Shown in pieces: positions 20,602-48,010 of a stretch of DNA of 64,000 nucleotides (positions are counted from its first letter, which is position 1; the number at the start of each line of letters is the position of its first letter). The stretch comes from an uncultured Pseudomonadota bacterium (GTDB taxonomy: Bacteria; Pseudomonadota; Gammaproteobacteria; Burkholderiales; Burkholderiaceae_C), in contig CAMFIB010000005.1 of NCBI GenBank assembly GCA_945952465.1, forward strand, positions 20,820 through 84,819, given 5' to 3'. The position numbers and the translations under genes are program-made. Below the pieces are notes generated by a model, which worked only from the letters and a program-made list of their open reading frames with translations, ran no database searches and had not been told where the DNA came from.

Positions 20602-23523
20602 TCAGCCCAGGTGCTTGCCGACGATGCCGGCGAGCTCGAACATCGACACCTGCGGCTTGCCGAACACCGGCAACAGCTTGGCGTCGGCGTTGATGGCGCG
20701 CTTGTCCTTGGCGTCCTGCAGGCCGTTGGCCTTGATGTAGTCCCACAGCTTCTTGATCACCTGCGGCCGTGCCACCGGCTCGGCGCCGATCACCGCCGCC
20801 AGCGCCGCGCTGGGCACCGCGCCGGCCGACGCCGAAGCGGTCTTGCGCGGTGCGGCGGCCTTCTTGGCGGCCGGCGCCTTTTTCGCGGCAGCGGCCTTCT
20901 TTGCCGGCGCGGACTTGGCGGTGGCCTTCTTCGCGGCGGTGGGCGGCGCGTCGCCGCCGTCGGCGGTCTTCGCGGCCGTCTTGCGCGGCGGGAACTTGGA
21001 CGGCGCGAACTCGAAGCCGACCTTGCCCGCTTCGGCGTCGTATTTCAGGTGGGCCTTGAACGCGCGGCGGGTGCGCATGGAGACGAACTTGTCGAGCAGG
21101 TCGGTCTTGCCTTCCGTGAGCAGCTTGTGCATCTGCGCGCGCTCCACCGGCTGTTGCAGGATGATCTGGCCGGTCTTGAAGTCGCAGCTCGGCGTGGGCT
21201 GCTTCATCGTGGGCACCGAGCGCTCGCAGACGTAGTTCTTGCCGTGCTCGTGCACCTCGCCGCTGCACTTCGGGCAAGCGCCGAGCGATTCGTCGGTGAA
21301 GGTGACCAGCTCGCCCGACTCGGCGTCGGCGGCGTCCTCGCCGAAGTCGAACTCCAGCTTCCAGTTCTTGTCTTCGTCGCTGAACTTCAGCACCATCTCG
21401 GCCACGAAGGGCCAGCCCGCCTTGGAGCGGAACCCGTCGAGCGGGCCGATGTGTTTGTCGTGCACGAAAGCCTCGGCTTCGGCGGCGTCGAAGGTGCGGC
21501 CGGCCGGCGTCTTGGTGAACGAGAAGCCGCAGCCCTGGTCCTCGCTGTTGCCGGCCTGGCCGGTGCAGGCGTAGCGGCGGTAGTTCTCCTTCACCACGCC
21601 GCCGCAGTTGGGGCAGGGCGTGCGCAGCGTGGCGTAGTCGCCGGGCACGGTATCGCGGTCATATTCCTTCGCCTTCTTGACGATGTGTTTCGTCATCTCG
21701 GCGATTTCCTGCATGAAGGCGTCGCGGCTCAGCTTGCCCAGCTCCATCTGCGCGAGCTTGTACTCCCATTCGCCGGTCAGCTCGGGCTTGGAGAGTTCCT
21801 CCACGCCCAGGCCGCGCAGCAGCGTCATGAGCTGGAAGGCCTTGGCGGTGGGAATCAGCTCACGGCCTTCGCGCAGCATGTATTTCTCGGCGATGAGCCC
21901 TTCGATGATGGAGGAGCGGGTGGCTGGCGTGCCCAGGCCCTTTTCCTGCATCGCTTCGCGCAGCTCGTCGTCTTCCACGAACTTGCCGGCGCCTTCCATC
22001 GCGCCCAGCAGCGTGGCTTCGGAGTAGCGGGCCGGCGGGCGCGTCTTCAGCGGCTTGACCTCGGCCTGATCGGTCTTCACCGTTTCGCCGGGCGCCACCG
22101 CCACCAGCGTCTTGTCCTTCGAATCCTCGCTGTCGGCGTCGACTTCCTTGCCGTAGATGGCCAGCCAGCCCGGCTTGACCAGCACCTTGCCGTCGCTCTT
22201 GAAAGAATGCCCGGCCGCCACCGTGATGCGGGTGGTGATCTGGTATTCGGCGCTGGGGAAGAACACCGCCATGAAGCGGCGGGCCACCAGGTCGTAGATC
22301 TTCTGCTCGGCTTCGCTGAGGCCGCTGGGCGCTTCCAGCGTGGGGATGATGGCGAAGTGGTCGCTGACCTTGGCGTTGTCGAAAACGCGTTTGGTCGGCT
22401 TGATGTAGCCGCCTGCAAGCGCCGTCTTGGCGTGCGGCGCGAGGTGCTTCAGGCTGCTGGCAGCCAGCATCTCGAAGGTGTTCTTCACCACCGACACGTA
22501 GTCCTCGGGCAGCGCGCGCGAGTCGGTCCGGGGGTAGGTGAGGGCCTTGTGGCGCTCGTACAGGCTCTGCGCGATCGACAGCGTGGTCTTGGCCGAATAA
22601 CCGAAGCGGCCGTTGGCCTCGCGCTGCAGGCTGGTCAGGTCGAACAGCAGCGGGCTGGCCTGGGTGCTGGGCTTGGATTCCTCGGTGACGGTGCCGGGCT
22701 GGCCGCGCACCGCCTTCGCGATGGCCTGGGCGTCGGCGTCGGTCCAGACGCGGTCGGCCTTTTTCTCGGCGTCCTCCGCGTCTTTCTTCCAGGCCGGGTC
22801 GAACCACTTGCCGGCGTATTCACCGGCCTTGGCGCCGAAGGTGGCGTGGATTTCCCAGTAGTCGCGGCTCACGAACTTGCGGATCAGCTCTTCACGCTCC
22901 ACCACCACGCTGAGCGTCGGCGTCTGCACCCGGCCCACGGTGGTCAGGAAGAAGCCCCCGTCGCGCGAATTGAAGGCCGTCATGGCCCGCGTGCCGTTGA
23001 TGCCGACCAGCCAGTCCGCTTCGGAGCGGCAGCGCGCGGCGTCGGCCAGCGGCAGCATCTGGCCGTCGGTGCGCAGGCTGTCGAAGCCGTCGCGGATGGC
23101 CTGCGGCGTCATGGACTGCAGCCACAGCCGCTTGCTCGGCTGCTTGGCGCCGGAATACTGCTGGATGAGCCGGAAGATCAGCTCGCCCTCGCGCCCCGCG
23201 TCGCAGGCGTTCACCAGCGCGCTCACGTCCTTGCGCTTGGCGAGCTTGACGATGGCGTTGAGCCTTGTTTTGGTCTTGTCGATCGGTTTCAGGTCGAAAT
23301 GCGGCGGGATCACCGGGAGGTGGGCGAAGCTCCACTTGCCGCGTTTCACGTCGTACTGTTCGGGCGCCTGTATCTCCACCAGGTGGCCGACCGCACTGGT
23401 CACCACATAGTGTTCGTTTTCAAAATGTTCGGCGGCCTTGTCGAATTTCCCGGCCACCGGCGTCAGCGCACGGACGATGTCCTGTGCAACCGACGGCTTC
23501 TCTGCAATCACCAGCGTCTTCAT
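20602..23523 (-). CDS. topB: DNA topoisomerase III (type IA) with C-terminal zinc ribbons, a lysine/alanine-rich tail and a SWIB/MDM2 domain
   Basis: From ATG at 23523, MKTLVIAEKPSVAQDI is the TOPRIM start. The zinc ribbons are CPNCGG...C..GC and CPKCSG...C. The tail reads AAKKATAKSAPAKKAAAAKKAPAAKKAAAPRK. The SWIB-like end is RPQVIKKLWDYIKANGLQDAKDKRAINADAKLLPVFG. Confidence 0.88.
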   Translation of the reverse strand: MKTLVIAEKPSVAQDIVRALTPVAGKFDKAAEHFENEHYVVTSAVGHLVEIQAPEQYDVKRGKWSFAHLPVIPPHFDLKPIDKTKTRLNAIVKLAKRKDVSALVNACDAGREGELIFRLIQQYSGAKQPSKRLWLQSMTPQAIRDGFDSLRTDGQMLPLADAARCRSEADWLVGINGTRAMTAFNSRDGGFFLTTVGRVQTPTLSVVVEREELIRKFVSRDYWEIHATFGAKAGEYAGKWFDPAWKKDAEDAEKKADRVWTDADAQAIAKAVRGQPGTVTEESKPSTQASPLLFDLTSLQREANGRFGYSAKTTLSIAQSLYERHKALTYPRTDSRALPEDYVSVVKNTFEMLAASSLKHLAPHAKTALAGGYIKPTKRVFDNAKVSDHFAIIPTLEAPSGLSEAEQKIYDLVARRFMAVFFPSAEYQITTRITVAAGHSFKSDGKVLVKPGWLAIYGKEVDADSEDSKDKTLVAVAPGETVKTDQAEVKPLKTRPPARYSEATLLGAMEGAGKFVEDDELREAMQEKGLGTPATRSSIIEGLIAEKYMLREGRELIPTAKAFQLMTLLRGLGVEELSKPELTGEWEYKLAQMELGKLSRDAFMQEIAEMTKHIVKKAKEYDRDTVPGDYATLRTPCPNCGGVVKENYRRYACTGQAGNSEDQGCGFSFTKTPAGRTFDAAEAEAFVHDKHIGPLDGFRSKAGWPFVAEMVLKFSDEDKNWKLEFDFGEDAADAESGELVTFTDESLGACPKCSGEVHEHGKNYVCERSVPTMKQPTPSCDFKTGQIILQQPVERAQMHKLLTEGKTDLLDKFVSMRTRRAFKAHLKYDAEAGKVGFEFAPSKFPPRKTAAKTADGGDAPPTAAKKATAKSAPAKKAAAAKKAPAAKKAAAPRKTASASAGAVPSAALAAVIGAEPVARPQVIKKLWDYIKANGLQDAKDKRAINADAKLLPVFGKPQVSMFELAGIVGKHLG

Positions 23524-23625
23524 CTGTCTCACTACAATGCGGCTCTCGCGTGCGTGCGCACGCGCGCCTGGCGCGGGTCCGCACGCGCGCACCCGCTCAA
23601 ATTCAACATACCAAATTTTCGAGTC

Positions 23626-29020: not shown

Positions 29021-29398
29021 ATGCATGGCCTGCACCTGACCGCCGACTGCTACCAGTGCCGCTGCGACGCCGCCTGGCTGACCGACGCGGCCCGCCTTGG
29101 CGACTGGTGCGAACAGGCCGTGGCCCGCGCCGGCCTGCAGGTCGTGAACCGGCTGTTCCACACCTTTCCGGCCACCGACAAAGGCCCCGGCGGCGTGACC
29201 GCCACCGTGCTGCTGGCCGAGTCGCACCTGTGTGTGCACACCTGGCCCGAGCAGCGCGCCGTCACGCTCGACGTCTACGTCTGCAACTTCGGCGGCAACC
29301 ATTCGGCCAAGGCCGTCGCGCTGATGGACGCTCTCGTGGAACGCTTCTCACCCGAATGGACCGAGCGCCGCTCGCTCGACCGCGGAGATGCTGCATGA
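29021..29398 (+). CDS. S-adenosylmethionine decarboxylase-like (SpeH/AdoMet_dc family) small protein
   Basis: MHGLHLTADCY...TATVLLAESHLCVHTWPEQRAVTLDVYVCNF carries the ES/H...HTWPE self-processing signature. An alternative ATG is at 29003. Confidence 0.7.
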   Translation: MHGLHLTADCYQCRCDAAWLTDAARLGDWCEQAVARAGLQVVNRLFHTFPATDKGPGGVTATVLLAESHLCVHTWPEQRAVTLDVYVCNFGGNHSAKAVALMDALVERFSPEWTERRSLDRGDAA

Positions 29399-32328: not shown

Positions 32329-32946
32329 TTACTGCGGAAACACACTCGGAAACACCACCTGCCGCGCCCAATCCGGCAGTGGCTGTACCCGCAGATCAGT
32401 AGCATCCGCCTTGCAGCGGGCCACCAACCGATGCGTACCACGCTCCACCGCATGTGAGTCGTACAGCAGCGCCGCGTCGGCCTGCCGTACCGCGATGGCC
32501 AAGTGCGCGAGGCTGCGTGGGTAGCGCTCCAGGATGCGTTCACGCGGCACGGCATGGCCGCCCTCTTTCACGCGGCGTGACACGCGTTGCACCAGCTGCC
32601 GCGTGTCGTCCAGGCCCACCACCAGCAGCAGCACGTAGAAGCCGGCGGCGCGGGCGTCGGTGACCAGTTGCAGCTTGGAGGCGTGGGAGAACACGGTTTC
32701 GCTGACGAAGGAGCGGAGCTGGGCGATGCATTCGGCGCGGCGGGCGTCGGCCCAGGCGCGGGCTTGCTGGGAGCGTTGCAGCGGGTCGGCCACTTGCTGC
32801 AGGTGGGCGGCCTCGTACAGGTCGGCATTCACGAATTCGAGCGACGCGGGCAGCGTGCCGTTGTCGACGAGCGCGCGGTACAGCGTGGACTTGCCGGCGC
32901 CGTTGGGGCCGGCCAGCAGGTAGAAGACCGGTTGTGTCGCAGCCAA
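32329..32946 (-). CDS. Zeta-toxin-family P-loop kinase (type II toxin candidate)
   Basis: 205 aa with Walker A LLAGPNGAGKSTLY. Its size and its position directly downstream of a ParD-like gene fit a toxin role. Confidence 0.7.
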   Translation of the reverse strand: MAATQPVFYLLAGPNGAGKSTLYRALVDNGTLPASLEFVNADLYEAAHLQQVADPLQRSQQARAWADARRAECIAQLRSFVSETVFSHASKLQLVTDARAAGFYVLLLVVGLDDTRQLVQRVSRRVKEGGHAVPRERILERYPRSLAHLAIAVRQADAALLYDSHAVERGTHRLVARCKADATDLRVQPLPDWARQVVFPSVFPQ

Positions 32947-32956
32947 GGGCGGCGGC

Positions 32957-33301
32957 TTACTGCGCCTTCAGCGCGGCGGCCCGGGCGCGGTTGCCGGCGA
33001 TGACGCGGCGCACGCGGGTGGCGAGGCTGCCGTCGGCCTCGGAGGCCATGAAGCCGTGCAGCACGGCGTCGTCGGCGAAGGGGTCGGCGGGCGTCGCGGC
33101 GGCCGACGGCAGGCGCGTGGCTTCGAAGCCGGCGATGGCCTGTTGCGCTTCCTGCACCGTCAGGCCGGCGTGCTCGACGGCCTGGCCGAGCATGGCCCAG
33201 TACTCGATCTGGCTGGCGACAGACCGGCGCAGCGTTTGCGCCGACTCACGGGCCTGGTCGACCAGATCGGTCGAGAGTTTGACGGAAGCAAAACCGGACA
33301 T
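32957..33301 (-). CDS. ParD-like antitoxin candidate
   Basis: An internal ATG at 33301 gives MSGFASVKLSTDLVDQARESAQTLRRSVASQIEYWAMLGQAVE, 114 aa in total. It ends 10 nt upstream of the zeta-like gene. Confidence 0.6.
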   Translation of the reverse strand: MSGFASVKLSTDLVDQARESAQTLRRSVASQIEYWAMLGQAVEHAGLTVQEAQQAIAGFEATRLPSAAATPADPFADDAVLHGFMASEADGSLATRVRRVIAGNRARAAALKAQ

Positions 33302-33327
33302 GGCGAATCCCGAAATGTGCCAGAGAT

Positions 33328-33352
33328 GCGCCAAATGGTAGCAAAGTGGCGC
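33328..33352. promoter_or_regulatory. Inverted repeat GCGCCA-N13-TGGCGC upstream of the antitoxin gene (candidate operator)
   Basis: gcgcca is at 33328-33333 and tggcgc at 33347-33352, 27-51 nt upstream of the antitoxin ATG. Confidence 0.3.
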
Positions 33353-33371
33353 AATCGGGGCAATGCTGTGG

Positions 33372-36300
33372 TTACTTCCAGCGCCAGGTGTAGACCGCGT
33401 CGACCGCGTTGTCGCTGCCGGTCTGGCCGCGCAGCGTGAAGCGCTGGGCAATGCGGTAGATGAGCTGAAAACTGCCGGTGGTGCCGTTCAGGCCGCGTTC
33501 GTAGCCCACGTACACGCGCTCGTTGATCTGCTTGCCGAGCGTGACGATGGTTTCTTTTACCTCGCCGTCGGTCTGCCGCAGCGAGATGTCGTCGAGCCCG
33601 ATCGCCTTGGTCAGCTGGGTGGTCACGCCCTCTTCCTCGCCCGACAGCAGCGCCACGGCGGCGCGCTGCAGCAGCGCGGTGTCGGTGCGGCCCAGGCCGC
33701 CGCTGGCGCGGCCCAGCACCAGCCACGAGAGCTTGTCGACCTCGGGCAGGTCGGGCTCGGAGAACAGCCGCACGCGCGGGTTGATCGCGTTGCCGGTGAC
33801 CTGCACGCCCACGCGCACGTCGGTCTGTGGCCGGGTGGCCTCGATGTCGAGCCTCGGGTTGCCGGGCGCGCCGCTGAAGGTCAGCAGGCCGCGGTCGATC
33901 GTCATCTTCTGGCCGTAGGCGGCGTAGTTGCCGCCCACCGTGCGCACCTGGCCGTTCACCGCCAGCGCGCCGCCGGGCGCGGTGATCTTCAAATCGCCAG
34001 CCAGCCGGGTGTTGAGGCCGCGGCCCTTCAGCCGCAACTGCTCGCCCAGGCTGAGCGTGAGGTTCAGCGCGAGCTGGCGCGGCGTGGCGACCGGCGCCTG
34101 CGCCGGCGGCGCGTCGGGCTGGGTGGCGCCGCGCGTCACCACGGTGCCGCCGGGGCCGGCGGTGGTGGTGGCGGCCGGCTTGGCACCTGGCGCTGTGGGC
34201 GCGGGTTTGGCGCGGGTCACGACCACGTCGTCCGACAAACTCGGCGCGTCGCCCTTGGTGAAGTCGATCAGCCCTTCGTCAACGGCCAGCTTGCCGTCCA
34301 TCGCGATGCGGTCGGGTGCAACGCGCAACTGCGCCTGGCCGCTGGCGACGATGCGCATGTCGACCCGGCCGAGCAACTGGAACTTGTCGGCCACCAGTTG
34401 CAGCGCCGCGCTGGGCGCGTTGCCCAGCTTTGCACCGCCCGTCACCGTCAGCGTGCCGTTGCCGGCCTTGGCGGTGAAACGCTCGATGCGGGCGCTGTCG
34501 CCGGCCAGTGTCACCGCCACCTCGCCGTCGGTGATGTTCACGCCCTGCAGCACGTTGCGCAGCGCCAGCTTCTGCGCGGCGATGCGGCCGGTGAGTTCCG
34601 GCCCACCGAGCTTGCCGCCCACCGTGGCGCGGCCCTGCAGGCTGCCGCCCACCCGCCAGCCGGTCGGCACCCAGCTCGCCAGCGCTTCCAGGCTGGCCAC
34701 GTTGAGGTCGATTGCGCCCTGCACAGGCGTGGCCGCGTCGGGCAGCAGCGCGCCGGCCGAGGTGCGCGCCACCACCGAGCCGCCCGCCGTGCCGGTGGCC
34801 TTGCCGGCCACGCGCGGCGTGAAGGTCCAGACGCCGTTGGCGGCGGTCAGCGCCACCTTCAGCTCCGTCAGGCCCAGCGCCTGCCGGGTGCCGTCTTCGG
34901 TGGTCAGCACCAGGTCACCCTTCTGCCGCTCGACCACGATGTCGGCGCTGACGGCGGGGCTGCTTTTCATCGCGATGCGGCCGCCGATCACCAGGTCGCC
35001 GTCCCAGCCGAAATCGGGCTGGACATGCGCGAGCAACGGTGCCACCGCCACCGGGTCCAGCGTGGCCTGCACGTCGAACTGCGCGGCCGGCGGCGCTTTG
35101 GCGTCTGGAGCGTTGGCGGCCTGCTGCCAGACCGCACGCGTCCAGCGAATCGCCGACGCGGTGGGGCCGGCCTTGAAGTCGATGCGGCCGGGCTGCAGCT
35201 CCACACCCATCGCCTCGGCCGACCACCGCACCGCCGCCTGAATGCCGCGCGCCTGCAGCCATGGCGCGCCGGGGTTGGCCACGTCGGCCGCCACCAGCTC
35301 CTGCACCGTGCCTTGCCACGCGCTGGTGGTGCCGCTGCCCTTGGCCACGGCCAGCGCGGGCGCGTCGTGGCGCAGGCCACCTTGCAGCTTCAGCGCCAGG
35401 TCAGCGGCTTTGCGGGGTGCTGTGGTTTCGCCGCCGGCGGCGGGCACGCCGGGTTGCGGCGACTCCAGCGCGGCGCGGGCCTTCAGATCGAGCTGGTGCG
35501 CGCGCGCCGTGCCCTTCAGCGCGATGTCGGCCGACTCGACCGGCTGGCCCGCCAGCAGCAGTTGCCGCAGCGTGGCCTCGATCTGCGCGGGTGCGTCGAG
35601 CGTGGTGCCCAGCTTCCAGCGCACGTCGCCGCTCTTCAGCGCGTTGTCGGCGCCGGCCGTGAGGCTGCGAATGGTGAGCTGGCCCTGGCTGCTCACGTCG
35701 GGCCAGCGGCCGCGCAGGCTGGCCTGGCCTTCGACCTCGCCGGCCAGTTTGGGTGCGGCCGGCGCGGCGGTTTGCTTCGCGCCTTTCACCGGTGGGCCGC
35801 TGGCCGGCAGCAGGTCCATCAGTGGCTGCAGCTTGTGCAGCGCCGGTGCGCGGATGTCGAACTCGGCCACGTCGCCCGACGCCGGCTGCACGGCGAGGCG
35901 GGCCTTGGCGTTGAGCTTGTTGTCGGCGAGGTTGAGCACCGCGTCGGCGCGGCCGGCGCCTTTGTCGTCGCTGCCCACGGCCACGTCGGCCTGCAGCGGC
36001 ACGCCGACCAGTTGGCTGTTCGCGAGCTTGAGCTGCGCCTGGCCGGTGAAGGCCGCGAAGACCGCCTGCCAGACCGGCGCGCCGCCCTTGCCCGCAACCT
36101 GGGTGGCGGCCTTGGCGGCTGAGGCGGGGGTTTCGGGTGCTTGCGCGTTGGCCGGCAGGCCCTTCCAGACGAGGTCGACCCCCGCCGTGCCGTTGATGCG
36201 CGTGGCGCCGCGGCGCAGCGCAGATTGACGCGCGCCCGGCCACCACAGCAGGGGATCGAACGCGCGGAAATCACCGCTCAGCTTCACCTGCCACGGCGCG

Positions 36301-39752: not shown

Positions 39753-41360
39753 TCACGCGCGGGCCGCCCAGCCGCCCGCTGCGTTGCCGAAGGTGAAGGC
39801 CTCTTCGAAGATGGAATACCCGGCGAGGTCGGCGTGGGCAAAACGCAGCCGCTGCCACGGCGCGGCCTGCGGCTGCCGCAGGGCCGCCAGCGCGGCGCTG
39901 CTGTGTACGCCGGGCACCGGCATGCTCATGGCGTGGCCGTAGCGGGTCAAGGCGATGCGGGTGGCCTTCTTCGCGATGTCGGGGTGCGGCAGCGCCAGTT
40001 CGGCCAGCACTTCGTCGCGCCAGGCGGTCCACGGCCGCTCCAGCAGTTGGCGCCGGCCGCCGGGCTGGTCGCCGAGCGCGCGGTAGCAGGTGAGCACGGT
40101 GGCGCCGGGCATGGGCGACAGGCTCTGGTGCTGCGCGTCCACATAGCCCAGGCCCCGGCTGCCGTAGATGACGTTGTCCCAGCTCGGCGGCGCGCCGGGC
40201 CGGTCGAACAGCGGCTCGGCGATGTGCACGTTGGCCACCAGCCAGGGCGCATAGCGCAGCTTGGCCGCCGCCTCGGCCAGCGCCGGGGGCGGGTTTTCGA
40301 CCACGCGCGCGGCCACGAACAGCGGCAGCGCGACCACGCAGCGCTCGGCCGTCCAGCGCTCGGTGGCGCCGCTGGCGGTGTTGAGCGCGTCAACGGTCAC
40401 GCCGTGTTTGTCGCAGGCGATGCGGGTGACCACGCGGCCCGGCTTCAGGCGCTCGCCGAGGGGCGCGGCCAGCCGTTCGGCCAGCCAGGCGTTGCCCTCC
40501 GGCCAGGTCAGCAGGCCTTCACTGTCAGGCGGCGCCGGGTGGCCGGGCGCGTGGAAGCCGTGGCGGCTGGCGAAGTAGTGCAGGCCGGCCCAGGCCGAGA
40601 CCTGGGCGATGCCGGCGCCGTAGTCGTCGCGGCAGCAGTAGTCGAGGTACCAGCGCAGCCGCGCATCGGTGAGGCCATTGGCGGTCAGCCATGCTTCAAA
40701 AAACATAGCGTCCAATTCAGTGTGGACGCTGACTACCGGGCGTTTTGATGATGGAATCGTGAATGTGGCGGCGCGCTGGGCTTCGTCCACCAGCGTGGCG
40801 AATCGGCGGTACTGCGCCAGCGTCTCGGCGCCCACGCCGGCCAGCGGCAGCAGCCCTTCCTGCCAGTGCCAGCCGTCGCCGCCGTTGTAGAACAGCCGCT
40901 CCTGCGGCGTGTGGCACAGGTGGCGTTCGTCATACGTCCAGCGGCCGGCCACGCGGCGGCGCAGGCCGAATTCTTCCAGCAGGTCCTGCACCTCGGGCGC
41001 GTCGTCGCTGGGCAGCGGCAGGTAGTGCGCGCCGAGCGGGCAGCGCAGGCCGCTCACGCTGCCGCCGCGGCTGTTGCCGCCGGCCGTGTCTTCCAGCTCC
41101 AGCACCACCACGTCGTCAACGCCGGCCAGCCGCAGCGCCCGCGCCGCCGCCAGCCCGGCGACGCCGCCGCCGGCGATCAGCACGCGGGTGCCTTCGGTCT
41201 TGCCCGGGGCTTGCGCTGGTCGCGCTTCGCGCAGTTGGTGGCCGCGCTCGAACGAGATGCCGGTGAAGCCGCCGTCGATGTGGCCGAAGCGGTCGGCAGA
41301 CTCGTCGCAGCCGGCGAGCGCTGCCGCCAGCGGAAGGGAGAACAGGTCGCGCCGCTTCAT
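39753..41360 (-). CDS. Tat-signal lipoprotein, FAD-dependent amine-oxidase-like oxidoreductase
   Basis: 535 aa. MKRRDLFSLPLAAALAGC combines a twin-arginine motif with a lipobox. The dinucleotide-binding motif is VLIAGGGVAGLAAARAL...LELEDTAGGN. Confidence 0.8.
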   Translation of the reverse strand: MKRRDLFSLPLAAALAGCDESADRFGHIDGGFTGISFERGHQLREARPAQAPGKTEGTRVLIAGGGVAGLAAARALRLAGVDDVVVLELEDTAGGNSRGGSVSGLRCPLGAHYLPLPSDDAPEVQDLLEEFGLRRRVAGRWTYDERHLCHTPQERLFYNGGDGWHWQEGLLPLAGVGAETLAQYRRFATLVDEAQRAATFTIPSSKRPVVSVHTELDAMFFEAWLTANGLTDARLRWYLDYCCRDDYGAGIAQVSAWAGLHYFASRHGFHAPGHPAPPDSEGLLTWPEGNAWLAERLAAPLGERLKPGRVVTRIACDKHGVTVDALNTASGATERWTAERCVVALPLFVAARVVENPPPALAEAAAKLRYAPWLVANVHIAEPLFDRPGAPPSWDNVIYGSRGLGYVDAQHQSLSPMPGATVLTCYRALGDQPGGRRQLLERPWTAWRDEVLAELALPHPDIAKKATRIALTRYGHAMSMPVPGVHSSAALAALRQPQAAPWQRLRFAHADLAGYSIFEEAFTFGNAAGGWAARA

Positions 41361-41367
41361 GCCCGCC

Positions 41368-42924
41368 TCAATGCGCGACCTTGCCCCATTCCTGCTCGTA
41401 GGTGGTCACCAGCACCTGGTTCGACAGGCGGTTGATGTCGGTGTCGATGCGCGCCATGTCTTGCGGAAAATCGAACAGCAGCGGCAGGCTTTGCAGGTTG
41501 AGAAAACGCAGGCCGGCCGGCAGCGAGGCCGGTGCATGGAACGGCCGCCGGCTCGCGATGACGAAGCCCCATTCGCCAAAGCTCGGCACGTTGGCGTGGT
41601 ACGGCGCCGTCTGCAAGCCGACCGATTCCACCGTCTTCACCACCGTCCAGTAGCTGCGCCGCGCGACCAGCGGCGAGGTGGTCTGGATCACCGCGTAGCC
41701 ACCCGCCGCCAGCCGCCGTTCCAGCAGCGCGTAGAAGGAGTTGGTGTAGAGCTTGCCGATCGCGAAATTGGTCGGGTCCGGGAAATCGACGATGACCACG
41801 TCGAAGTGTTCCTCGGTTTTCTCCAGCCAGCCGAAGGCGTCGGTGTTGACGATCTTGACCTTGGGCGACTTCAGCGCGCCGCCGTTGAGCTGCACCAGCG
41901 CCGGCTGCTCGGAAAAGAGTTGGGTCATCGCCGGGTCCAGCTCCACCAGCGTCACGCTCTCCACGCTCGGGTACTTCAGTATTTCGCGCACCGCCATGCC
42001 GTCGCCGCCGCCCAGCACCGCCACCCGGCGCGGCCCGCCACCGGCCGACGCGTAGGCCGACATCACCGGATGCACCAGCGCCTCGTGGTAGCGGTACTCG
42101 TCGCGCTCGGCGAACTGCAGGTTGCCGTTCAGAAACAGCCGGTAGCCCGCATGGCCGGCCGCACCGCTGTGCGTGACGACGATGCGCTGGTAGGGCGAGC
42201 TGGCGGCGAACACCACCCGGTCCTGGTAGAACTTGTCCTCGGTCCAGCTGGTGATGGTGGCCGCACCCGCAAAGCCCGCCAGCAGCGTGGCCGTCACGCC
42301 GAAGCAGGCGGCGGCGTGCGCCGCGAAGTGCCGCAGCTCGTGCCGGAACAGCCACAGCGCCCACACCGCCACCAGCGCGTTCATCACGCCGAAGAACAGG
42401 CCGGTGCGCACCAGCCCGAGCTGCGGCACCAGGATGATCGGGAACGCCACCGACACCGCCAGCGCGCCGAGGTAGTCGAAGGTCAGCACCTGCGACACCA
42501 GCTCCTTCAGCGCCACGTCGCGCTTCAGAATGCGCATCACCAGCGGAATCTCCAGCCCCACCAGCATGCCGACCAGCAGCACCAGCCCGTAGAGCAGGAA
42601 CCGGAAGGCGCCGGGCGTGTAGGCGTTGGCGAGGAACAGCAGCGCCGGCATCACGCCGCCGACCAGCGCCACCATCAGCTCCACCCGCAGGAAGTGCGCG
42701 GGCAGTTGCCGGTCGAAGAAACGCGACAGCCAGGAGCCCACACCCATCGCGAACAGATAGGTGCCGATCACGGTGGAGAACTGCAGCACCGAGTCGCCCA
42801 GCACATACGACGCCAGCGCGCCCGCGACGAGTTCGTAGACGAGGCCACAGGCGGCCACGACGAACACGCTGGCCAGCAGCGCGATCTCGATGGGGCGGGG
42901 GGCGGGTGAGGAAGGGGCGGTCAC
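41368..42924 (-). CDS. Polytopic membrane domain fused to a spermidine-synthase-like aminopropyltransferase
   Basis: 518 aa. About 200 aa of TM helices are followed by YHEALVHP, VAVLGGGDGMAVRE and VVIVDFPDPTN, which are SpeE-fold signatures. Confidence 0.85.
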   Translation of the reverse strand: MTAPSSPAPRPIEIALLASVFVVAACGLVYELVAGALASYVLGDSVLQFSTVIGTYLFAMGVGSWLSRFFDRQLPAHFLRVELMVALVGGVMPALLFLANAYTPGAFRFLLYGLVLLVGMLVGLEIPLVMRILKRDVALKELVSQVLTFDYLGALAVSVAFPIILVPQLGLVRTGLFFGVMNALVAVWALWLFRHELRHFAAHAAACFGVTATLLAGFAGAATITSWTEDKFYQDRVVFAASSPYQRIVVTHSGAAGHAGYRLFLNGNLQFAERDEYRYHEALVHPVMSAYASAGGGPRRVAVLGGGDGMAVREILKYPSVESVTLVELDPAMTQLFSEQPALVQLNGGALKSPKVKIVNTDAFGWLEKTEEHFDVVIVDFPDPTNFAIGKLYTNSFYALLERRLAAGGYAVIQTTSPLVARRSYWTVVKTVESVGLQTAPYHANVPSFGEWGFVIASRRPFHAPASLPAGLRFLNLQSLPLLFDFPQDMARIDTDINRLSNQVLVTTYEQEWGKVAH

Positions 42925-42964
42925 GGTGTGGCGGCCGGTCCCGCCCGGTGTTCGGGCGAAGGCT

Positions 42965-43186
42965 TCAACCGTGGATCGCCGCTGCGACGATGATGGAGAT
43001 GCCCAGGCACATCGCCGCGACCACCAGGCCCAGCGCCACGTTGTGTTTCTCGACGATCTCGCCCCACAGGTCGTAGGGCGTGATCTTGTCGATGATGATG
43101 AACGCCACCCAGAAGATGATGACGCCGATCAGCGCGTAGATGATGGAGCCGATGAAGGCGCCGGGTTTCAGCCATTCAAGTCCCAT
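42965..43186 (-). CDS. DUF350 (YjfL-type) small membrane protein
   Basis: 73 aa with two hydrophobic helices separated by DKITPYDLWGEIVEKHNVA. Confidence 0.75.
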   Translation of the reverse strand: MGLEWLKPGAFIGSIIYALIGVIIFWVAFIIIDKITPYDLWGEIVEKHNVALGLVVAAMCLGISIIVAAAIHG

Positions 43187-43229
43187 GGTGTGCTCCCAGT
43201 AGAAACCGTGTGTTGAGAAAGAGGGGGGG

Positions 43230-44795
43230 TCACTTGTGGCCGCCGCCGCCGGAGAAACCGCCGAACGAACCGCCCGAGTTGCGGTAGCTGTTGCCGGAGC
43301 TGCTGCAGTTCTCGGTCTCCGGGTCGCACGAATCGCAGCGCGACAGCGCCACCGCGATGAAGACCAGCACGAAGAAGGTGATGAGCACGCCGCGCAACGT
43401 GATGGACGAGCCCAGGCTGGTCGGGCCGGCGTCGCCGAACGGCGGCGAAGCCTTCAGGTTCTTCAGGCCGAAAGCGGTGGCCACCGTCGAGGCCGGGAGG
43501 TTGTTGCCGTAAGACCAGGTCACCTCGTTGGCCGACTGTTCCATCGACAGCAGCAGGCCGCCGCTGGCGTAGTCGCGGTTGAAGGTCTTCTGGCCGCGCT
43601 GCACCCGCCAGTAGAACTCGCCGGCCACGTAGTTGGTCTCGGCGGCGTAGCTGTATTTGCGCTGGTAGCGTTTGCCGAGGTAGGTGGCGACGTTGCCGTT
43701 GGTGTCCAGCGTGGGCGCGCCGGTGGCCGGCTTCACCATGCTCCAGCCTTCCTCGGAATCCACGAGGAAACTGAAGCCCTTTTTCTGGTTGAACAGCAGG
43801 TACTCGCCCCAGCCGAAGGACTCGTCCGGGTCTTCCGGCGCCTTTCCCATGCGGTGCTGAAACCCCACCACCTGCCACTGCACGCCCTGCAACTGGCCGA
43901 CGCTGCCCAGCGCGATGACCGGGCGCACCGGGTCGTCCTGCTCCGCGTGGGCCAGCGCGGCGCCGGTGCCCTGCGACAGGTCGATGATGCTGTTGCAGGC
44001 GGTGCAGGTGATGCTCTTGCTGGTTGCCAGCTTGACCTCGACAGGCGCGCCGCAATTCGGGCAGTCGAAGCGCTGGCCCTTTTCGTCCTTGGCCGACTCG
44101 TCGCGCAGGCCTTTGAGCGCCAGCGCATCCAGCTCCACCGCCTGGCCGCGCGACAGCGTGGGTTGGCGGCCGGCCGCTTGCGGGCCGTAGTCGATCGACA
44201 GCACCTCGCCGTCGTCGCTGCGCAGCTCCACCACCGCGAAGGGCGCGCCGATCGGCGGCATCTTGGGCAGCTCGCCCTGCGCCGCCGCGAGCGACACCGG
44301 TTCGTTGCTGGAAACCGTGTACTTCTTGCCGGCGATCGTCGTCGTCGCGCCGACCTTGAAGACCTCGGCGGCCGGCACGTCGCGCTGCGCCGCGACCACC
44401 CGCGACATGACGAAGGAGCCGTTGTCCTCGCTCAGCGTGGCGGTGCTTTCGGGGCTGCCGTCGCTGTCGTCGAAATTGGCGATCCACTCGTTCCAGCTGC
44501 CTTCGGCGTAGCGGTACTGCAGCCGGCCGATCAGCGTGAAGCCGCGGTTCTGCCAGCGGCCCGACACGAACAGCTGCAGCGGGCTGTAGTCGTCGAACAC
44601 CTCCGACATCTTGCCGATGCGGGCCAGCGTCTCGCCGTCGCGCACCACCGTGCTCTGGCAGTAGCCGCAGACCGCGTGGGTGGACTGCGCGTTGCGGAAC
44701 AGCACCGGCGCGCCGCAGCCGGGGCAGGCCGCGCGATAGGCGCGCTGGCTCTCACCCCCGCCGGGCGGGTTGCCGGAGTCTCCCTCGGTGGCCAT
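43230..44795 (-). CDS. Double zinc-ribbon / double DUF4178-like protein with a C-terminal TM helix and a Cys/Gly-rich tail
   Basis: 521 aa. CPGCGAPV...CGYCQS and CPNCGAPV...CTACNS are each followed by a ~200-aa module (GRWQNRGFTLIGRLQY... and GSVGQLQGVQWQVVGFQHR...). The end is a TM helix VLITFFVLVFIAVAL followed by RCDSCDPETENCSSSGNSYRNSGGSFGGFSGGGGHK. Confidence 0.7.
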   Translation of the reverse strand: MATEGDSGNPPGGGESQRAYRAACPGCGAPVLFRNAQSTHAVCGYCQSTVVRDGETLARIGKMSEVFDDYSPLQLFVSGRWQNRGFTLIGRLQYRYAEGSWNEWIANFDDSDGSPESTATLSEDNGSFVMSRVVAAQRDVPAAEVFKVGATTTIAGKKYTVSSNEPVSLAAAQGELPKMPPIGAPFAVVELRSDDGEVLSIDYGPQAAGRQPTLSRGQAVELDALALKGLRDESAKDEKGQRFDCPNCGAPVEVKLATSKSITCTACNSIIDLSQGTGAALAHAEQDDPVRPVIALGSVGQLQGVQWQVVGFQHRMGKAPEDPDESFGWGEYLLFNQKKGFSFLVDSEEGWSMVKPATGAPTLDTNGNVATYLGKRYQRKYSYAAETNYVAGEFYWRVQRGQKTFNRDYASGGLLLSMEQSANEVTWSYGNNLPASTVATAFGLKNLKASPPFGDAGPTSLGSSITLRGVLITFFVLVFIAVALSRCDSCDPETENCSSSGNSYRNSGGSFGGFSGGGGHK

Positions 44796-44838
44796 GTTCG
44801 TTTGCGGCGCTTTGTTGTTGTTGTCGCCGAAGGGGGCG

Positions 44839-45873
44839 CTAGCTCAGCTTCTTGAGCAGCTCCGCCTTCTTCGCGTCGAATTCTTCCTGCGTCAGGATGC
44901 CCTTGCTCTTCAGGTCACCCAGCTTTTCCAGCGTGGCCATGATGTCCTCCGGCCGCACCTGCGCGGCGGCCGCGGCATTGGCCTGCTGGTTGCTGCTGTT
45001 CAGGCCCTGGCTCAGGTTCTGCGCCAGCACCTGGCCCAGCGCCACACCGGCACCCAAGCCCATCGCGTCGCCGGCCACGCCGCCGCCGTTGCCCGCGCCC
45101 TCGGCGAATTTGGGAATGGCCTGCGCGGTCTGGTACTGCATGAACTTGCCCATGTCGTTGCCGACCATGCCCATGCCGATCTTCTGGTCCAGAATCTTCT
45201 GCAGCTCTTCCGGCAGCGACACGTTCTGCACCGTCATGCCGTCGAGCTTGATGCCGATCTTCGCGAACTCCGGCGCCAACTGCGTCACCAGCGCGTTGGC
45301 GAACGCCATCTGGTTGGCCGCCAGATCGAGGAAGGGGATCTGGCTGGACGCGATCGCGTTGCTGATGTTCTGCAGCACCAGGCCACGCAGCTGGCCGTCG
45401 AGGTCGGCCACGGTGTAGCGCTCGCGGGTGCCCGAGATTTCGGTGTGGAACAGCTTGGGGTCGGCCACACGGTAGGCGAAGTTGCCGAAGGCGCGCAGCC
45501 GTACGGCGCCGAAGTCCTTGTCGCGCACGGTGATCGGCTGCGGCGTGCCCCACTTCTGGTCGATCTGCTGGCGCGTGCTGAAGAAATAGACGTCGCTCTT
45601 GAACGGGGACTCGAACAGCTTGTCCCAGTTCTTCAGGTAAGTCAGCACTGGCAGCGTCTGGGTGGTGAGCTTGTAGGTGCCCGGCCCGAACACGTCGGCG
45701 ACCTTGCCTTCGTTGACGAAGACCGCCATCTGCGATTCGCGCACCGTGAGCGAGCCGCCGTTCTGGATTTCCATGTCGCGCATCGGGAAGCGCCAGGCCA
45801 GCGTGCCGTCGCCGTCCTCGGTCCACTGGATGATGTCTATGAACTGCTTCTTGATGAAGTCCATCAGCGCCAT
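44839..45873 (-). CDS. SPFH/Band-7-domain protein with a C-terminal SHOCT-like motif
   Basis: An internal ATG at 45873 gives MALMDFIKKQFIDIIQW...SLTVRESQMAVFVNEGK. The C-terminus is LEKLGDLKSKGILTQEEFDAKKAELLKKL. Confidence 0.8.
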   Translation of the reverse strand: MALMDFIKKQFIDIIQWTEDGDGTLAWRFPMRDMEIQNGGSLTVRESQMAVFVNEGKVADVFGPGTYKLTTQTLPVLTYLKNWDKLFESPFKSDVYFFSTRQQIDQKWGTPQPITVRDKDFGAVRLRAFGNFAYRVADPKLFHTEISGTRERYTVADLDGQLRGLVLQNISNAIASSQIPFLDLAANQMAFANALVTQLAPEFAKIGIKLDGMTVQNVSLPEELQKILDQKIGMGMVGNDMGKFMQYQTAQAIPKFAEGAGNGGGVAGDAMGLGAGVALGQVLAQNLSQGLNSSNQQANAAAAAQVRPEDIMATLEKLGDLKSKGILTQEEFDAKKAELLKKLS

Positions 45874-46073
45874 GGCGGCCCCCTTGTGAAAGTGTGCGGG
45901 AATGATACCCCCGGCCGTTTTTCGGGCAACTGCCAACCGCGCGGCTCGATAGCTCCTATCAATGGATTAGCGGAACTCAATTGGCCCAACAAAAGAAATT
46001 GGCTATCATTTCTTCATCGCCGATGCAAATTGACTATCTATCTATCGGCCGATCCAAGAAAAGGAGTTCCCTG

Positions 46074-46577
46074 ATGACCACGTCCCGTACCCCTGAAATC
46101 AAGACCCTGGCCAACCTCGAGGCGGCCTTCGCCGGCGAATCCATGGCCTACATCAAATACCGCTATTTCGCCAAGCTGGCGCGGGAAGCGGGCGACGAGG
46201 CCACGGCCCGCACCTTCGAGGAAACCGCCGACCAGGAGGTGATGCACGCCTTCGGCCACCTCGATCTGCTCTACCCCAAGGCCGACATGACGCCGGCCAA
46301 GGCGCTGCAGATCGCCATTGATGGCGAGACCTACGAATACAGCGAGATGTACCCCGGTTTCCGCAAGACCGCCGAGGTGGAAGGCCAGGCGGCGGCGGTG
46401 GCCGAGATCGACGAGCAGATCGAAGAATCAAAGGAGCATGCCGCCCGCTTCCAGGCCGCCCAGCTCAAGCTGACGCTCGCCACGGCGCAGAAGCGCTTCG
46501 CCGCGCTGGCCCGGGTCGAGGAGCGCCATGCCGCGCACTACCAGTCCCAGCTCGACAAGGTGCGTCTGGCCGCCTGA
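46074..46577 (+). CDS. Rubrerythrin-family diiron protein (no fused rubredoxin domain)
   Basis: The ATG is preceded by aaaggag. LEAAFAGESMAYIKYRYFA, EEVMH-type (DQEVMHA) and EESKEHA metal-ligand motifs are present. Confidence 0.85.
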   Translation: MTTSRTPEIKTLANLEAAFAGESMAYIKYRYFAKLAREAGDEATARTFEETADQEVMHAFGHLDLLYPKADMTPAKALQIAIDGETYEYSEMYPGFRKTAEVEGQAAAVAEIDEQIEESKEHAARFQAAQLKLTLATAQKRFAALARVEERHAAHYQSQLDKVRLAA

Positions 46578-46679
46578 TCGCGACGATTAGGTTGCGTCCA
46601 CCACACCGATCGCGACACTCCCGGGGTGGCCGGTTGCGCCGGCAGCCCCATTCGTACCATTGAACATTTGAGCCCAACC

Positions 46680-46844
46680 ATGAAAACCTACCTCTGCATC
46701 ATCTGCGGCTTCGTCTACGACGAGACCGCCGGCCGCCCCGAAGACGGCATTGCCGCCGGCACCCGTTGGGGCGACGTGCCCGACAGCTGGGCCTGCCCGG
46801 ACTGCGGCGTCGCCAAGTCCGACTTCGAAATCGTCGAGATCTGA
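46680..46844 (+). CDS. Rubredoxin
   Basis: 54 aa: [15 protein letters not shown]...[14 protein letters not shown], with two CxxCG knuckles. Confidence 0.93.
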
Positions 46845-46849
46845 GCGCG

Positions 46850-48010
46850 ATGGTTTCCGCTGACCCGGCCGGCAAGCCGGTGGTCGTGCTGGGCAGCGGC
46901 CTCGCCGGATGGACCACCGTGCGCGAGTTCCGCAAGCTCGACACCGTGACCCCGGTGGTGATGGTCACCGCCGACGACGGCCACTTCTACGCCAAACCCA
47001 CGCTGTCGAACGCCGTCGCGCAGAACCGCCAGCCCGCGCAGCTCGTCACCACGCCTGCCGAGGCCATGGCGGCCAATCTGAACGTGAGCCTGCTGACCCA
47101 GACCCGGGCGGAGGCCATCCGGCCGCACCAGCAGGAAATCGTCTTGCCCACGGGGCCGCTGGCCTACCGGCATCTGGTGCTGGCCACCGGCGCCCGGCCG
47201 ATCCGCGTGCCCATCGCCGGCAACGCCGCGCACCGCGTGCTGTCGGTCAATTCGCTCGACGATTTCGCCGTGTTTCACCCCGAACTGCAGCGCGGCCGCA
47301 CGGTGCTCGTCATGGGCGCCGGCCTGATCGGCTGCGAATTCGCCAACGATTTGATCGCCGGTGGCATCCAGGTCACGCTGGTCGACCCGGCGCCGCACCC
47401 CCTGGCCGCGCTGCTGCCGGCTGAAGCCGGTGCCGCGTTGCAGGCCGCGCTCGAGGCAGCGGGCGTGCGTTTTTGCCTGGGCACGACCGTGCAGGCGCTG
47501 GACGGCACGCCCGACGGCCGCACCCTAGCCACACTCGCCAACGGCGAGACTCTGGTTGCCGACGCGGTGCTCAGCGCGATCGGCCTGCGGGCCGACCTGT
47601 CGCTCGCGCAGGCCGCCGGCATCGCCTGCGACCGCGGCGTGCTGGTCGGCGACCAGCTCCAGACCAGCGCACCCAACATCCACGCACTCGGCGACTGCGC
47701 GCAGTACGCCAGCGCCGGCCACCTGACGCTGCCCTACGTCATGCCCATCATGCATGCCGCCAAGGCGCTGGCGGCCACTCTGGCGGGCCAACCAGCACAA
47801 CTGGCCTTTCCAGTCATGCCGGTGGCGGTCAAGACACCCGCGCTGCCGCTGGTGCTGCTGCCACCGCCCGCCAACACGGTGGGCGGCTGGACACGCGAAT
47901 CCGGCGAGCGCTGGGACTGGCTGGACGAGGCCGGCCGCCTGCGTGGCTTCGTGCTGGCGGGTGCGGCCACCCGGCAGCGGATGGCGATGAGCGCCGCGGT
48001 TCATCGGTAG
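46850..48010 (+). CDS. NAD(P)/FAD-dependent oxidoreductase, rubredoxin-reductase-like
   Basis: It starts 6 nt after the rubredoxin stop. The dinucleotide folds are VVVLGSGLAGW and VLVMGAGLIGCEFA. Confidence 0.82.
   Translation: MVSADPAGKPVVVLGSGLAGWTTVREFRKLDTVTPVVMVTADDGHFYAKPTLSNAVAQNRQPAQLVTTPAEAMAANLNVSLLTQTRAEAIRPHQQEIVLPTGPLAYRHLVLATGARPIRVPIAGNAAHRVLSVNSLDDFAVFHPELQRGRTVLVMGAGLIGCEFANDLIAGGIQVTLVDPAPHPLAALLPAEAGAALQAALEAAGVRFCLGTTVQALDGTPDGRTLATLANGETLVADAVLSAIGLRADLSLAQAAGIACDRGVLVGDQLQTSAPNIHALGDCAQYASAGHLTLPYVMPIMHAAKALAATLAGQPAQLAFPVMPVAVKTPALPLVLLPPPANTVGGWTRESGERWDWLDEAGRLRGFVLAGAATRQRMAMSAAVHR

Follow-up and report, generated by a model that had tools for sequence, protein, structure and literature searches.

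Operons that combine polyamine-type enzymes with membrane-associated proteins are already known from the in silico work of Ravi et al. (2024; mSystems 9:e00847-23; PMC11237479), who reported, among others, a CesT/Tir-PspA operon that also encodes a seven-transmembrane (7TM)-fused spermine-synthase-like protein, DUF350, a lipoprotein and DUF4178, and a PspA-free variant composed of a band-7+SHOCT protein, an S-adenosylmethionine (AdoMet) decarboxylase as well as a polyamine oxidase. A further PspA-free variant includes DUF4247 and DUF2617, and is represented in M. tuberculosis by TM (transmembrane)+DUF4178, DUF2617, DUF4247, YjfL and TM+Spermine_synth, while the supplement of the same paper lists the DUF4178/DUF350/TM-spermine-synthase core in both Shewanella and M. 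tuberculosis (PMC11237479). These systems were proposed to be involved in the monitoring of polyamines or in the aminopropylation of other substrates (Ravi et al. 2024, PMC11237479). Here, we analysed a five-gene block located on the minus strand of a 64,000-nt stretch of DNA, referred to as the window, which derives from a metagenome-assembled contig (CAMFIB010000005.1) of a Comamonadaceae bacterium. The block encodes an SPFH protein, a DUF4178 protein, a DUF350 protein, a membrane-fused aminopropyltransferase (the SpeE fusion) and a flavin oxidase with predicted export signals. The reading that we favour, with moderate confidence, is that it belongs to a widespread envelope system of two coupled modules, i.e., a scaffold or sensor module and a trans-membrane aminopropyl pathway.

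The block resembles the PspA-free variant of Ravi et al. in that a band-7 protein with a C-terminal SHOCT domain takes the place of the CesT/Tir-PspA pair, and it likewise includes a DUF350 protein, a linked AdoMet decarboxylase and, as judged by family, an oxidase-like flavoenzyme. An earlier note on this locus, made from the sequence alone, had taken the combination to be undescribed, which is incorrect, since the PspA-free variant had already been published (PMC11237479). The gene combination is therefore already in the literature; speD, the gene for the decarboxylase, is inside the system, and the nearby tamA and tamB genes are outside it. The published variant is covered in two sentences, placed under the ATP-grasp group, and the paper makes no mention of the double zinc-ribbon/DUF4178 architecture, of an oxidase that is a twin-arginine translocation (Tat) lipoprotein or of the His-Lys tail module, all of which are described below. 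Furthermore, the ‘2TM’ segment that is assigned there to the band-7 protein corresponds in the present protein to a Gly/Ala-rich stretch below the TM hydropathy threshold, and speD of the window is displaced by 10 kb through tamAB and a toxin-antitoxin pair.

The M. tuberculosis Rv2597-Rv2601 and S. oneidensis SO_3763-SO_3766 operons (PMC11237479) share with the block the DUF4178 and DUF350 proteins and the TM-fused spermine-synthase-like enzyme. Unlike the block, the mycobacterial operon possesses DUF2617 and DUF4247 lipoprotein partners and the Shewanella operon CesT/Tir-PspA, Ctha_1186 lipoprotein and RHH partners, while neither supplement listing includes an SPFH protein or an amine oxidase. 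The earlier note had also likened the block to B. subtilis pspA-ydjGHI (pspA-samGHI), and this comparison stands as regards the soluble Band_7_1 SPFH protein and the double zinc ribbon, which in B. subtilis, too, belongs to a membrane protein with a TM helix. It does not extend to the remaining domains, as YdjG and YdjH carry an NTF2-like and a TPM domain, respectively, in place of DUF4178 (per PMC11237479), and the B. subtilis operon, unlike the block, encodes PspA and no polyamine enzymes; YdjGHI was compared by description, and no TPM domain was found in the block proteins using Pfam. In B. subtilis, the soluble SPFH protein YdjI/SamI requires the membrane proteins YdjG and YdjH in order to localise and to recruit PspA (Scholz et al. 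2021; Baur et al. 2026). E. coli yjfIJKLMC, which similarly combines DUF350 (YjfL), a lipoprotein and polyamine-type chemistry, differs from the block by its PspA-like YjfJ and CesT-like YjfI, by an ATP-grasp glutathionylspermidine-synthetase-like ligase in place of the aminopropyltransferase, and by having no SPFH, DUF4178 or oxidase component. A dedicated SpeD/SpeE pair of P. aeruginosa, PA4773-PA4775 (speD2-speE2), known as a surface-spermidine system, was reportedly shown by Johnson and colleagues in 2012 to supply polyamine for envelope protection and not for bulk growth; these enzymes are said to be soluble and PmrAB/PhoPQ-regulated, with no SPFH, DUF4178, DUF350 or oxidase partners.

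Organisation and conservation of the five-gene block

The first gene of the block encodes the 344-aa SPFH protein (44839-45873, minus strand), which consists of a Band_7_1 domain, a Gly/Ala-rich segment and a C-terminal SHOCT domain. It is followed on the same strand by genes for the 521-aa double zinc-ribbon/DUF4178 protein with a TM helix and a Cys/Gly tail (43230-44795), a 73-aa half-size DUF350 (YjfL-type) membrane protein (42965-43186), the 518-aa fusion of a membrane domain to an aminopropyltransferase (41368-42924) and a 535-aa protein predicted to be a Tat-exported lipoprotein of the flavin adenine dinucleotide (FAD)-dependent amine-oxidase superfamily (39753-41360). These assignments were made with Pfam, supplemented by NCBIfam for the fusion and by signal motifs for the oxidase. 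The intergenic gaps, from the SPFH gene to the oxidase gene, amount to 43, 43, 40 and 7 nt, and a separate gene call on the source contig returned the identical five products (344, 521, 73, 518 and 535 aa). The open reading frames (ORFs) and this gene call thus agree with the earlier note, which had described five co-directional minus-strand genes with gaps of 7-43 nt; the domains that it had named in all five proteins were recovered by Pfam and NCBIfam, and its two zinc ribbons, single TM helix, GGGDG and DFPDP motifs and twin-arginine/lipobox start were also found. The note had furthermore stated that no PspA is encoded, and indeed no member of the PspA or CesT families was detected in the block, in the called genes within +/-10 kb or in the other main window ORFs that were scanned.

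A consensus scan identified a sigma-70-like promoter, TTGCCC-16-TATCAT, upstream of the SPFH gene (45902-45929, minus strand), whose -10 box (G-TATCAT, ~30 nt upstream of the SPFH start) is kept in 71 related loci. Terminator-like sites were no commoner than in shuffled sequences and the intergenic hairpins were not significant, while an Rfam search of the window and of the leader of the first gene found no RNA family. PADLOC models returned no defence-system assignment, the only hits being a generic methyltransferase-fold match (mad2, 54 bits) and a weak FAD-motif match.

A scan of one genome per species for relatives of the DUF4178 protein matched at least 564 genomes, and the relatives of this protein represent 539 clusters (50% identity, E<=1e-30). 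The loci of the best 80 of these at least 564 genomes were compared, all of which belong to the Comamonadaceae, including Polaromonas, Rhodoferax, Variovorax, Ramlibacter, Hydrogenophaga, Acidovorax, Ottowia and other genera. The neighbourhood comparison that the earlier note had called for gave a clear outcome: where enough flank was available, the order and strand of the block were kept in essentially all 80 loci, confirming that the five genes constitute one conserved unit, beyond chance. Within the family, identity to the window proteins ranges from 78 to 89% for the SPFH protein, from 71 to 85% for the SpeE fusion, from 60 to 86% for DUF350 (the gene for which is present in 78 loci), from 58 to 70% for the oxidase and from 56 to 70% for the DUF4178 protein. 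Culturable carriers of the complete block include Variovorax paradoxus, Polaromonas and Rhodoferax ferrireducens.

The block was also encountered beyond this family. A gammaproteobacterial metagenome-assembled genome (MAG) carries an AdoMet_dc gene divergent from genes for Band_7_1/SHOCT, DUF4178, a 45-aa ORF, DUF350, the SpeE fusion and the oxidase, and the block is also present in related metagenome contigs. Two Acidobacteriota loci encode AdoMet_dc, DUF4178, a small ORF, DUF350 or a DUF350-sized ORF, and the SpeE fusion, with the oxidase gene present in one of the two. A further contig, likewise with a long-form DUF4178 protein, has genes for Band_7, DUF4178, a small ORF and DUF350 together with those for the SpeE fusion and the oxidase. 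A metagenome scan for which the long form of the DUF4178 protein (see below) served as query produced seven loci only. In Accumulibacter-type loci, a full-length DUF350 is accompanied by Band_7_1/SHOCT, DUF4178 and a small ORF, without the SpeE fusion or the oxidase nearby, while in locus L093 the scaffold genes and inverted oxidase-speD genes are split by unrelated genes, though still within ~6 kb. Based on the Accumulibacter-type loci that lack the enzymes, and on L093, in which the parts are rearranged yet close, the system appears to be built around a scaffold module to which an aminopropyl module is coupled in most, though not all, cases.

The occurrence of the scaffold genes without adjacent SpeE and oxidase genes in Accumulibacter-type loci would also be expected if two independent systems happened to share one transcript, the SPFH, DUF4178 and DUF350 proteins then representing a general microdomain or stress scaffold like SamGHI that is chemically unlinked to the enzymes. 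The same is true of the unrelated insertions of 2-8 kb that some Rhodoferax blocks tolerate at the SpeE/oxidase junction or at the DUF350/SpeE junction. We nevertheless regard such independence as unlikely, as the modules are adjacent in Comamonadaceae, in the gammaproteobacterial MAG and in Acidobacteriota and stay close even after rearrangement, and as the same enzymes keep DUF350 and DUF4178 where PspA, or DUF4247 with DUF2617, replaces SPFH. The Rhodoferax insertions at the SpeE/oxidase junction were dismissed as unrelated cargo; based on translations only, they apparently consist of restriction-type genes along with genes for a GntR-type regulator and a proline-racemase-like protein. The insertion that parts the scaffold genes from the inverted oxidase-speD genes in L093 (2578-5654) is made up of a run of six small ORFs (~135-170 aa), two of which encode SpoIIAA-like domains, after which comes a flavin monooxygenase gene.

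The aminopropyltransferase and its putative donor enzyme

The catalytic domain of the SpeE fusion (residues 225-518; 41368-42252 on the minus strand, stop codon included) matches Spermine_synth (4e-36), and the fusion scores 686 bits against the NCBIfam equivalog PRK03612, ‘polyamine aminopropyltransferase’, for which the cutoff is 472. Its best solved relatives are the polyamine aminopropyltransferase of T. thermophilus, a broad-specificity enzyme (1UIR; 3.6e-34), and thermospermine synthase (6BQ2). The ERDEYRYHE, GGGDG and DFPDP motifs are kept in distant homologues of the fusion, and the latter two align with GGGEG and DLTDP of 1UIR, which represent the glycine loop that binds decarboxylated AdoMet (dcSAM) and the catalytic Asp pair, respectively; as judged from these alignments, the predicted catalytic motifs are intact. 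The acceptor-side motif, DFPDP(T/N/S)N, is kept throughout the family and is unlike DLTDP of the Thermus enzyme. It also differs from D-S-S/T-D-P, the canonical motif of spermidine synthases.

A candidate donor enzyme, a predicted class 1b S-adenosylmethionine decarboxylase (SpeD), is encoded at 29021-29398 on the plus strand, where it was found by a search with AdoMet_dc proteins from the distant long-form loci. The protein scores 95.5 bits against Pfam AdoMet_dc and 79.8 bits against the TIGR03330 equivalog (cutoff 75.65), its closest solved structure is Aquifex SpeD (2III; 1.3e-13), and the motifs LLAESH...HTWPE...VC are kept. Of the 33 Comamonadaceae loci for which flanks of 5 kb were available, 17 have a speD homologue no more than ~6 kb from the block, and in six it immediately follows the oxidase gene; AdoMet_dc adjoins the block in gammaproteobacterial, acidobacterial and other contigs. 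The earlier note had proposed that co-occurrence with an AdoMet decarboxylase be checked, having itself missed this gene; given that speD neighbours the block in numerous relatives and also in distant phyla, the decarboxylase, by sequence assignment, does belong to the system as its predicted aminopropyl-donor enzyme. The AdoMet_dc gene of one acidobacterial operon (L088 6815-7903) was called as a single product with a Y1 transposase domain, which points either to an insertion of the IS200 type or to two genes merged in the call.

Comparable gene pairs have reportedly been studied by Li and colleagues in 2019, who are said to have found active AdoMet decarboxylases beside membrane-fused spermidine synthase (SpdSyn)-like proteins in species without spermidine. 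The membrane-SpdSyn-like fusion was reportedly unable to complement a speE mutant of E. coli; the class 1b decarboxylase was reportedly linked to the fusion and to DUF350, and an acceptor other than putrescine is said to have been proposed. As polyamines, Comamonadaceae are known to have putrescine and 2-hydroxyputrescine, and are not known for spermidine.

The PRK03612 and TIGR03330 matches, along with the intact catalytic Asp residues and dcSAM-binding loop, would equally suit ordinary polyamine metabolism, whereby bulk spermidine (or a hydroxylated analogue) is made from putrescine, the oxidase is catabolic and the scaffold genes are merely co-operonic. We judge this improbable, since across phyla the SpeE domain invariably comes with both a fused, conserved seven-helix domain and linked DUF350 and DUF4178 genes, since the acceptor-side motif is unlike that of Thermus and unlike the canonical one of spermidine synthases, and since the oxidase is predicted to be exported. 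The reported lack of spermidine in carrier species and of complementation by such fusions, and the polyamines known from Comamonadaceae, point the same way.

The membrane domain of the fusion (residues 1-224; 42253-42924, minus strand) comprises seven helices in an AlphaFold2 model with a predicted local distance difference test (pLDDT) value of 63.7. The domain matches the NCBIfam model ‘fused MFS/spermidine synthase’ only weakly (42.9 bits against a cutoff of 40), and a Foldseek search with it returned only weak matches of the major facilitator superfamily (MFS) type. Acidic or polar residues inside the helices are kept from Proteobacteria to Acidobacteriota. Among five diverse homologues, Lys and Arg residues number 7-11 in the N-terminus and loops 2, 4 and 6, versus 2-3 in loops 1, 3 and 5, and owing to this concentration of positive charge the N-terminus and loop 6 are probably cytoplasmic. 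The catalytic domain would then be periplasmic if helix 7, which is the least hydrophobic segment of the membrane domain, spans the membrane, and cytoplasmic if it does not. The charge pattern that would position the SpeE domain in the periplasm, provided that helix 7 spans, is possibly a new observation. The catalytic domain is devoid of Cys in 59 of 60 Comamonadaceae orthologues, which is suggestive, yet not decisive, for its localisation.

The predicted exported oxidase

The N-terminus of the oxidase, MKRRDLFSLPLAAALAGC, harbours a twin-arginine motif and a lipobox. The Arg pair and the lipobox Cys are invariant in 22 orthologues, three of which are from distant lineages. The residue that follows the lipobox Cys is variable, so that the lipoprotein may end up in either membrane. 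These features support the prediction that the oxidase is an exported Tat lipoprotein, and the invariance of its signal is possibly new. The suggestion in the earlier note that polyamine-type chemistry occurs on both sides of the membrane is, in light of this predicted export, a reasonable reading.

The protein contains an FAD-binding GxGxxG fold and an amine-oxidase domain over its full length, with a match to Pfam Amino_oxidase at residues 67-522 (6.9e-20; 72.2 bits, cutoff 19.8) and a further match to NAD_binding_8 (1.4e-12). In a profile comparison with solved enzymes, the best scores, 8e-11 to 1e-9, were obtained as partial alignments, among others with protoporphyrinogen oxidase, monoamine oxidase B and putrescine oxidase, and spermine oxidase was also matched.

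The scaffold proteins and the His-Lys tail

The SPFH protein matches Pfam Band_7_1 (7.7e-77) and SHOCT (1.4e-8); none of its segments exceeds the TM hydropathy threshold, consistent with a soluble protein, and no sequence relative was found in the Protein Data Bank (PDB). The DUF350 protein matches Pfam DUF350 (2.6e-14) at positions 6-66 of the 133-position model, i.e., half of it, and is predicted to form two hydrophobic helices with hydropathy peaks at 14-32 and 50-68.

The DUF4178 protein matches its Pfam family (7e-31) in two stretches. Both of its zinc ribbons keep their CxxC...CxxC residues without exception in the family, an argument for placing the N-terminal zinc-ribbon/DUF4178 region in the cytoplasm. 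The predicted DUF4178 beta domains contain the invariant aromatic/acidic motifs WNEW...GELP and WxEYLL...GEFYW. A single TM helix is predicted at residues 465-483 by hydropathy or up to residue 487 by AlphaFold2, the model of which (pLDDT 85.1, predicted template-modelling score 0.79) is all-beta with a helix at 467-487 and a disordered tail. A Foldseek search of this model against the PDB retrieved nothing at E<=0.001, the best match being the Cap15 beta-barrel (probability 0.84, TM-score 0.37), and a comparison with PDB sequences gave no match beyond the zinc ribbons.

The TM helix and the flexible tail of this protein (residues 465-521; 43233-43403, minus strand), the tail having a pLDDT below 50 and ending in ...GGHK, constitute a distinct module. 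The C-terminus is GGHK in 76, GSHK in four and GGGK in one of 81 Comamonadaceae orthologues. Short-form DUF4178 proteins in general possess a C-terminal TM helix and a Cys/Gly/Ser-rich tail, and 34 of 74 diverse short-form representatives end in HK or GK. Long-form DUF4178 proteins (~640 aa) are without a fused tail; directly 3' of their genes, an ORF of 45-54 aa, whose product combines a single TM helix with a tail terminating in YHK, FHK, RHK, SHK or GGK, is present in all 11 loci with downstream sequence. These micro-ORFs, the listing of which took in only ORFs ending in Lys, are located at L084 9992-10129, L085 9907-10053, L086 10048-10197, L087 9800-9946, L088 10014-10163 and L089 9928-10077, and also occur in L090-L094. 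Their peptides are alike within lineages and hold a fixed operon position, and they were also called as genes, though they match no Pfam family. No mention of the tail module or micro-ORF was found in the paper describing these operons (PMC11237479), and the conserved TM helix with a flexible His-Lys tail, whether as part of the DUF4178 protein or as the product of an ORF of its own, is possibly new.

The retention of this tail in fused or separate form, its C-terminal Lys and its flexibility in the model raise the idea of reversible protein aminopropylation, in which a writer and an eraser act as a switch on the C-terminal His-Lys tail or the micro-ORF peptide and thereby control the SPFH scaffold. 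Such a switch strikes us as quite unlikely, and we are just as doubtful of its detailed form, according to which the SpeE domain is periplasmic, the seven-helix domain supplies decarboxylated AdoMet and the oxidase erases the mark. The charge distribution would place the catalytic domain outside if helix 7 spans the membrane, the near-complete absence of Cys from that domain points the same way, the oxidase is periplasmic by its predicted export signals, and a C-terminal Lys may be viewed as chemically equivalent to carboxylated cadaverine. The scheme is, however, purely inferential, the helix on which it depends is the least hydrophobic, and we know of no exporter of decarboxylated AdoMet. 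Moreover, the tail micro-ORF is also present where SpeE and the oxidase are not nearby, as in the Accumulibacter-type loci, and the micro-ORF tails are net positive, which would favour the cytoplasmic side, opposite to the fused form.

A proposed two-module envelope system

In the arrangement that we favour, DUF350, the soluble SPFH/SHOCT protein and the double zinc-ribbon/DUF4178 protein, which is anchored in the membrane and bears the His-Lys tail, would make up the scaffold or sensor module. Docking of the SPFH oligomer on the inner membrane is probably the task of the DUF4178 protein, by analogy with SamG and SamH recruiting SamI, given that the soluble SPFH protein of B. subtilis needs two membrane proteins (Scholz et al. 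2021; Baur et al. 2026). In the second module, cytoplasmic class 1b SpeD would produce dcSAM, as suggested by its equivalog match and intact catalytic motifs, and the seven-helix-fused enzyme, working at the membrane, would use it to aminopropylate an amine acceptor that may not be putrescine. The conserved, acid-lined membrane domain may bring either donor or product to the other side of the membrane. In the periplasm, the lipid-anchored flavin oxidase would, following its predicted Tat export, oxidise this product or a related amine. The system as a whole probably serves to adjust the charge or stability of the envelope, or to report on it, and would do so without PspA.

The coupling of the two modules is put forward because of their linkage in ~80 Comamonadaceae genomes, in the gammaproteobacterial MAG and, in part, in Acidobacteriota, because AdoMet_dc is adjacent in distant lineages and syntenic in Comamonadaceae, and because the modules remain within 6 kb of each other in L093 despite their rearrangement. 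The proposed aminopropyl chemistry derives from the intact catalytic motifs and from the invariant Arg pair and lipobox Cys of the oxidase. The overall reading is further supported by the high identity of the TM-SpeE and SPFH proteins within the family, and by the listing of the same associations in PMC11237479. The envelope-polyamine interpretation advanced in the earlier note is consequently upheld in part, namely in the conserved unit, the motifs and the export signals; it went astray in counting tamAB as possible partners, in overlooking speD and in treating as new a combination that was already published.

A number of observations weigh against this reading. The scaffold module is found without the enzyme module nearby in some lineages, and coupling is thus not obligatory. 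In the window itself, speD is 10.4 kb from the block and on the other strand. The oxidase is only distantly similar to solved amine oxidases, and protoporphyrinogen oxidase scores equally well, while the model of the membrane domain is of low confidence and its Foldseek matches are not significant.

Neighbouring genes

In the window, the oxidase gene is followed by tamA after 50 nt and tamA by tamB after 13 nt, and the earlier note had suggested that these genes may be co-transcribed with the block. As members of the block, tamA-tamB were rejected: among the 80 loci they follow the oxidase gene in L001, L004 and L005 only, the three closest relatives, so that they represent recent neighbours and not partners. 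Other Comamonadaceae have pepP and speD, or other genes, downstream of the oxidase gene instead. The ancestral Comamonadaceae order is malic enzyme, the five-gene block, convergent pepP-speD, and tkt. In the window, tamAB and a ParD/zeta toxin-antitoxin pair are wedged between the oxidase gene and pepP-speD, the toxin-antitoxin pair consisting of a ParD-like antitoxin and a zeta-toxin/AAA_33 protein between tamB and pepP (32329-33451, minus strand). An operon that runs into tamA-tamB and serves outer-membrane protein assembly is extremely unlikely, given the restriction of this synteny to three of 80 loci and the ancestral neighbours pepP, speD and tkt, even though read-through is possible in the window genome, where the 50-nt gap contains no U-tract terminator and its hairpin is not significant (z = -1.7).

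Divergent from the block, an operon for rubrerythrin, rubredoxin and rubredoxin reductase is located at 46074-48000 on the plus strand (L001 6786-8722). It was considered as a peroxide-detoxifying partner of a hydrogen peroxide-producing oxidase and rejected, as rubrerythrin is present in five related loci only. Elsewhere in the window, a barnase-type ribonuclease and barstar inhibitor pair is encoded at ~50.6-51.5 kb (L001 3330-4208), and a type I DNA topoisomerase with a C-terminal SWIB/MDM2 domain (Pfam 5.4e-24), an unusual fusion, at 20602-23592 (minus strand). A gene for an extracytoplasmic function (ECF)-type sigma factor (11951-12520, minus strand) lies beside a DUF692 gene, which encodes a peptide-modifying enzyme of the MbnB/TglH/ChrH family (12883-13752, plus strand; Pfam 1.3e-90) and is accompanied by a DUF2063 partner (13749-14555, plus strand). 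From these three genes alone, this layout resembles a methanobactin- or bufferin-like modified-peptide cluster.

Implications

Relatives of the DUF4178 protein occur in genomes of at least 564 bacterial species, with related versions of the system in M. tuberculosis and Shewanella, and the system is experimentally uncharacterised. It bears on a question reportedly raised in 2019, concerning the role of an AdoMet decarboxylase and a membrane-fused SpdSyn-like enzyme in bacteria without spermidine. Specific, testable features are offered by the predicted export of the oxidase, by the topology deduced from the charge pattern and by the His-Lys tail, and the existence of culturable carriers makes the function of the system approachable by genetics and mass spectrometry.

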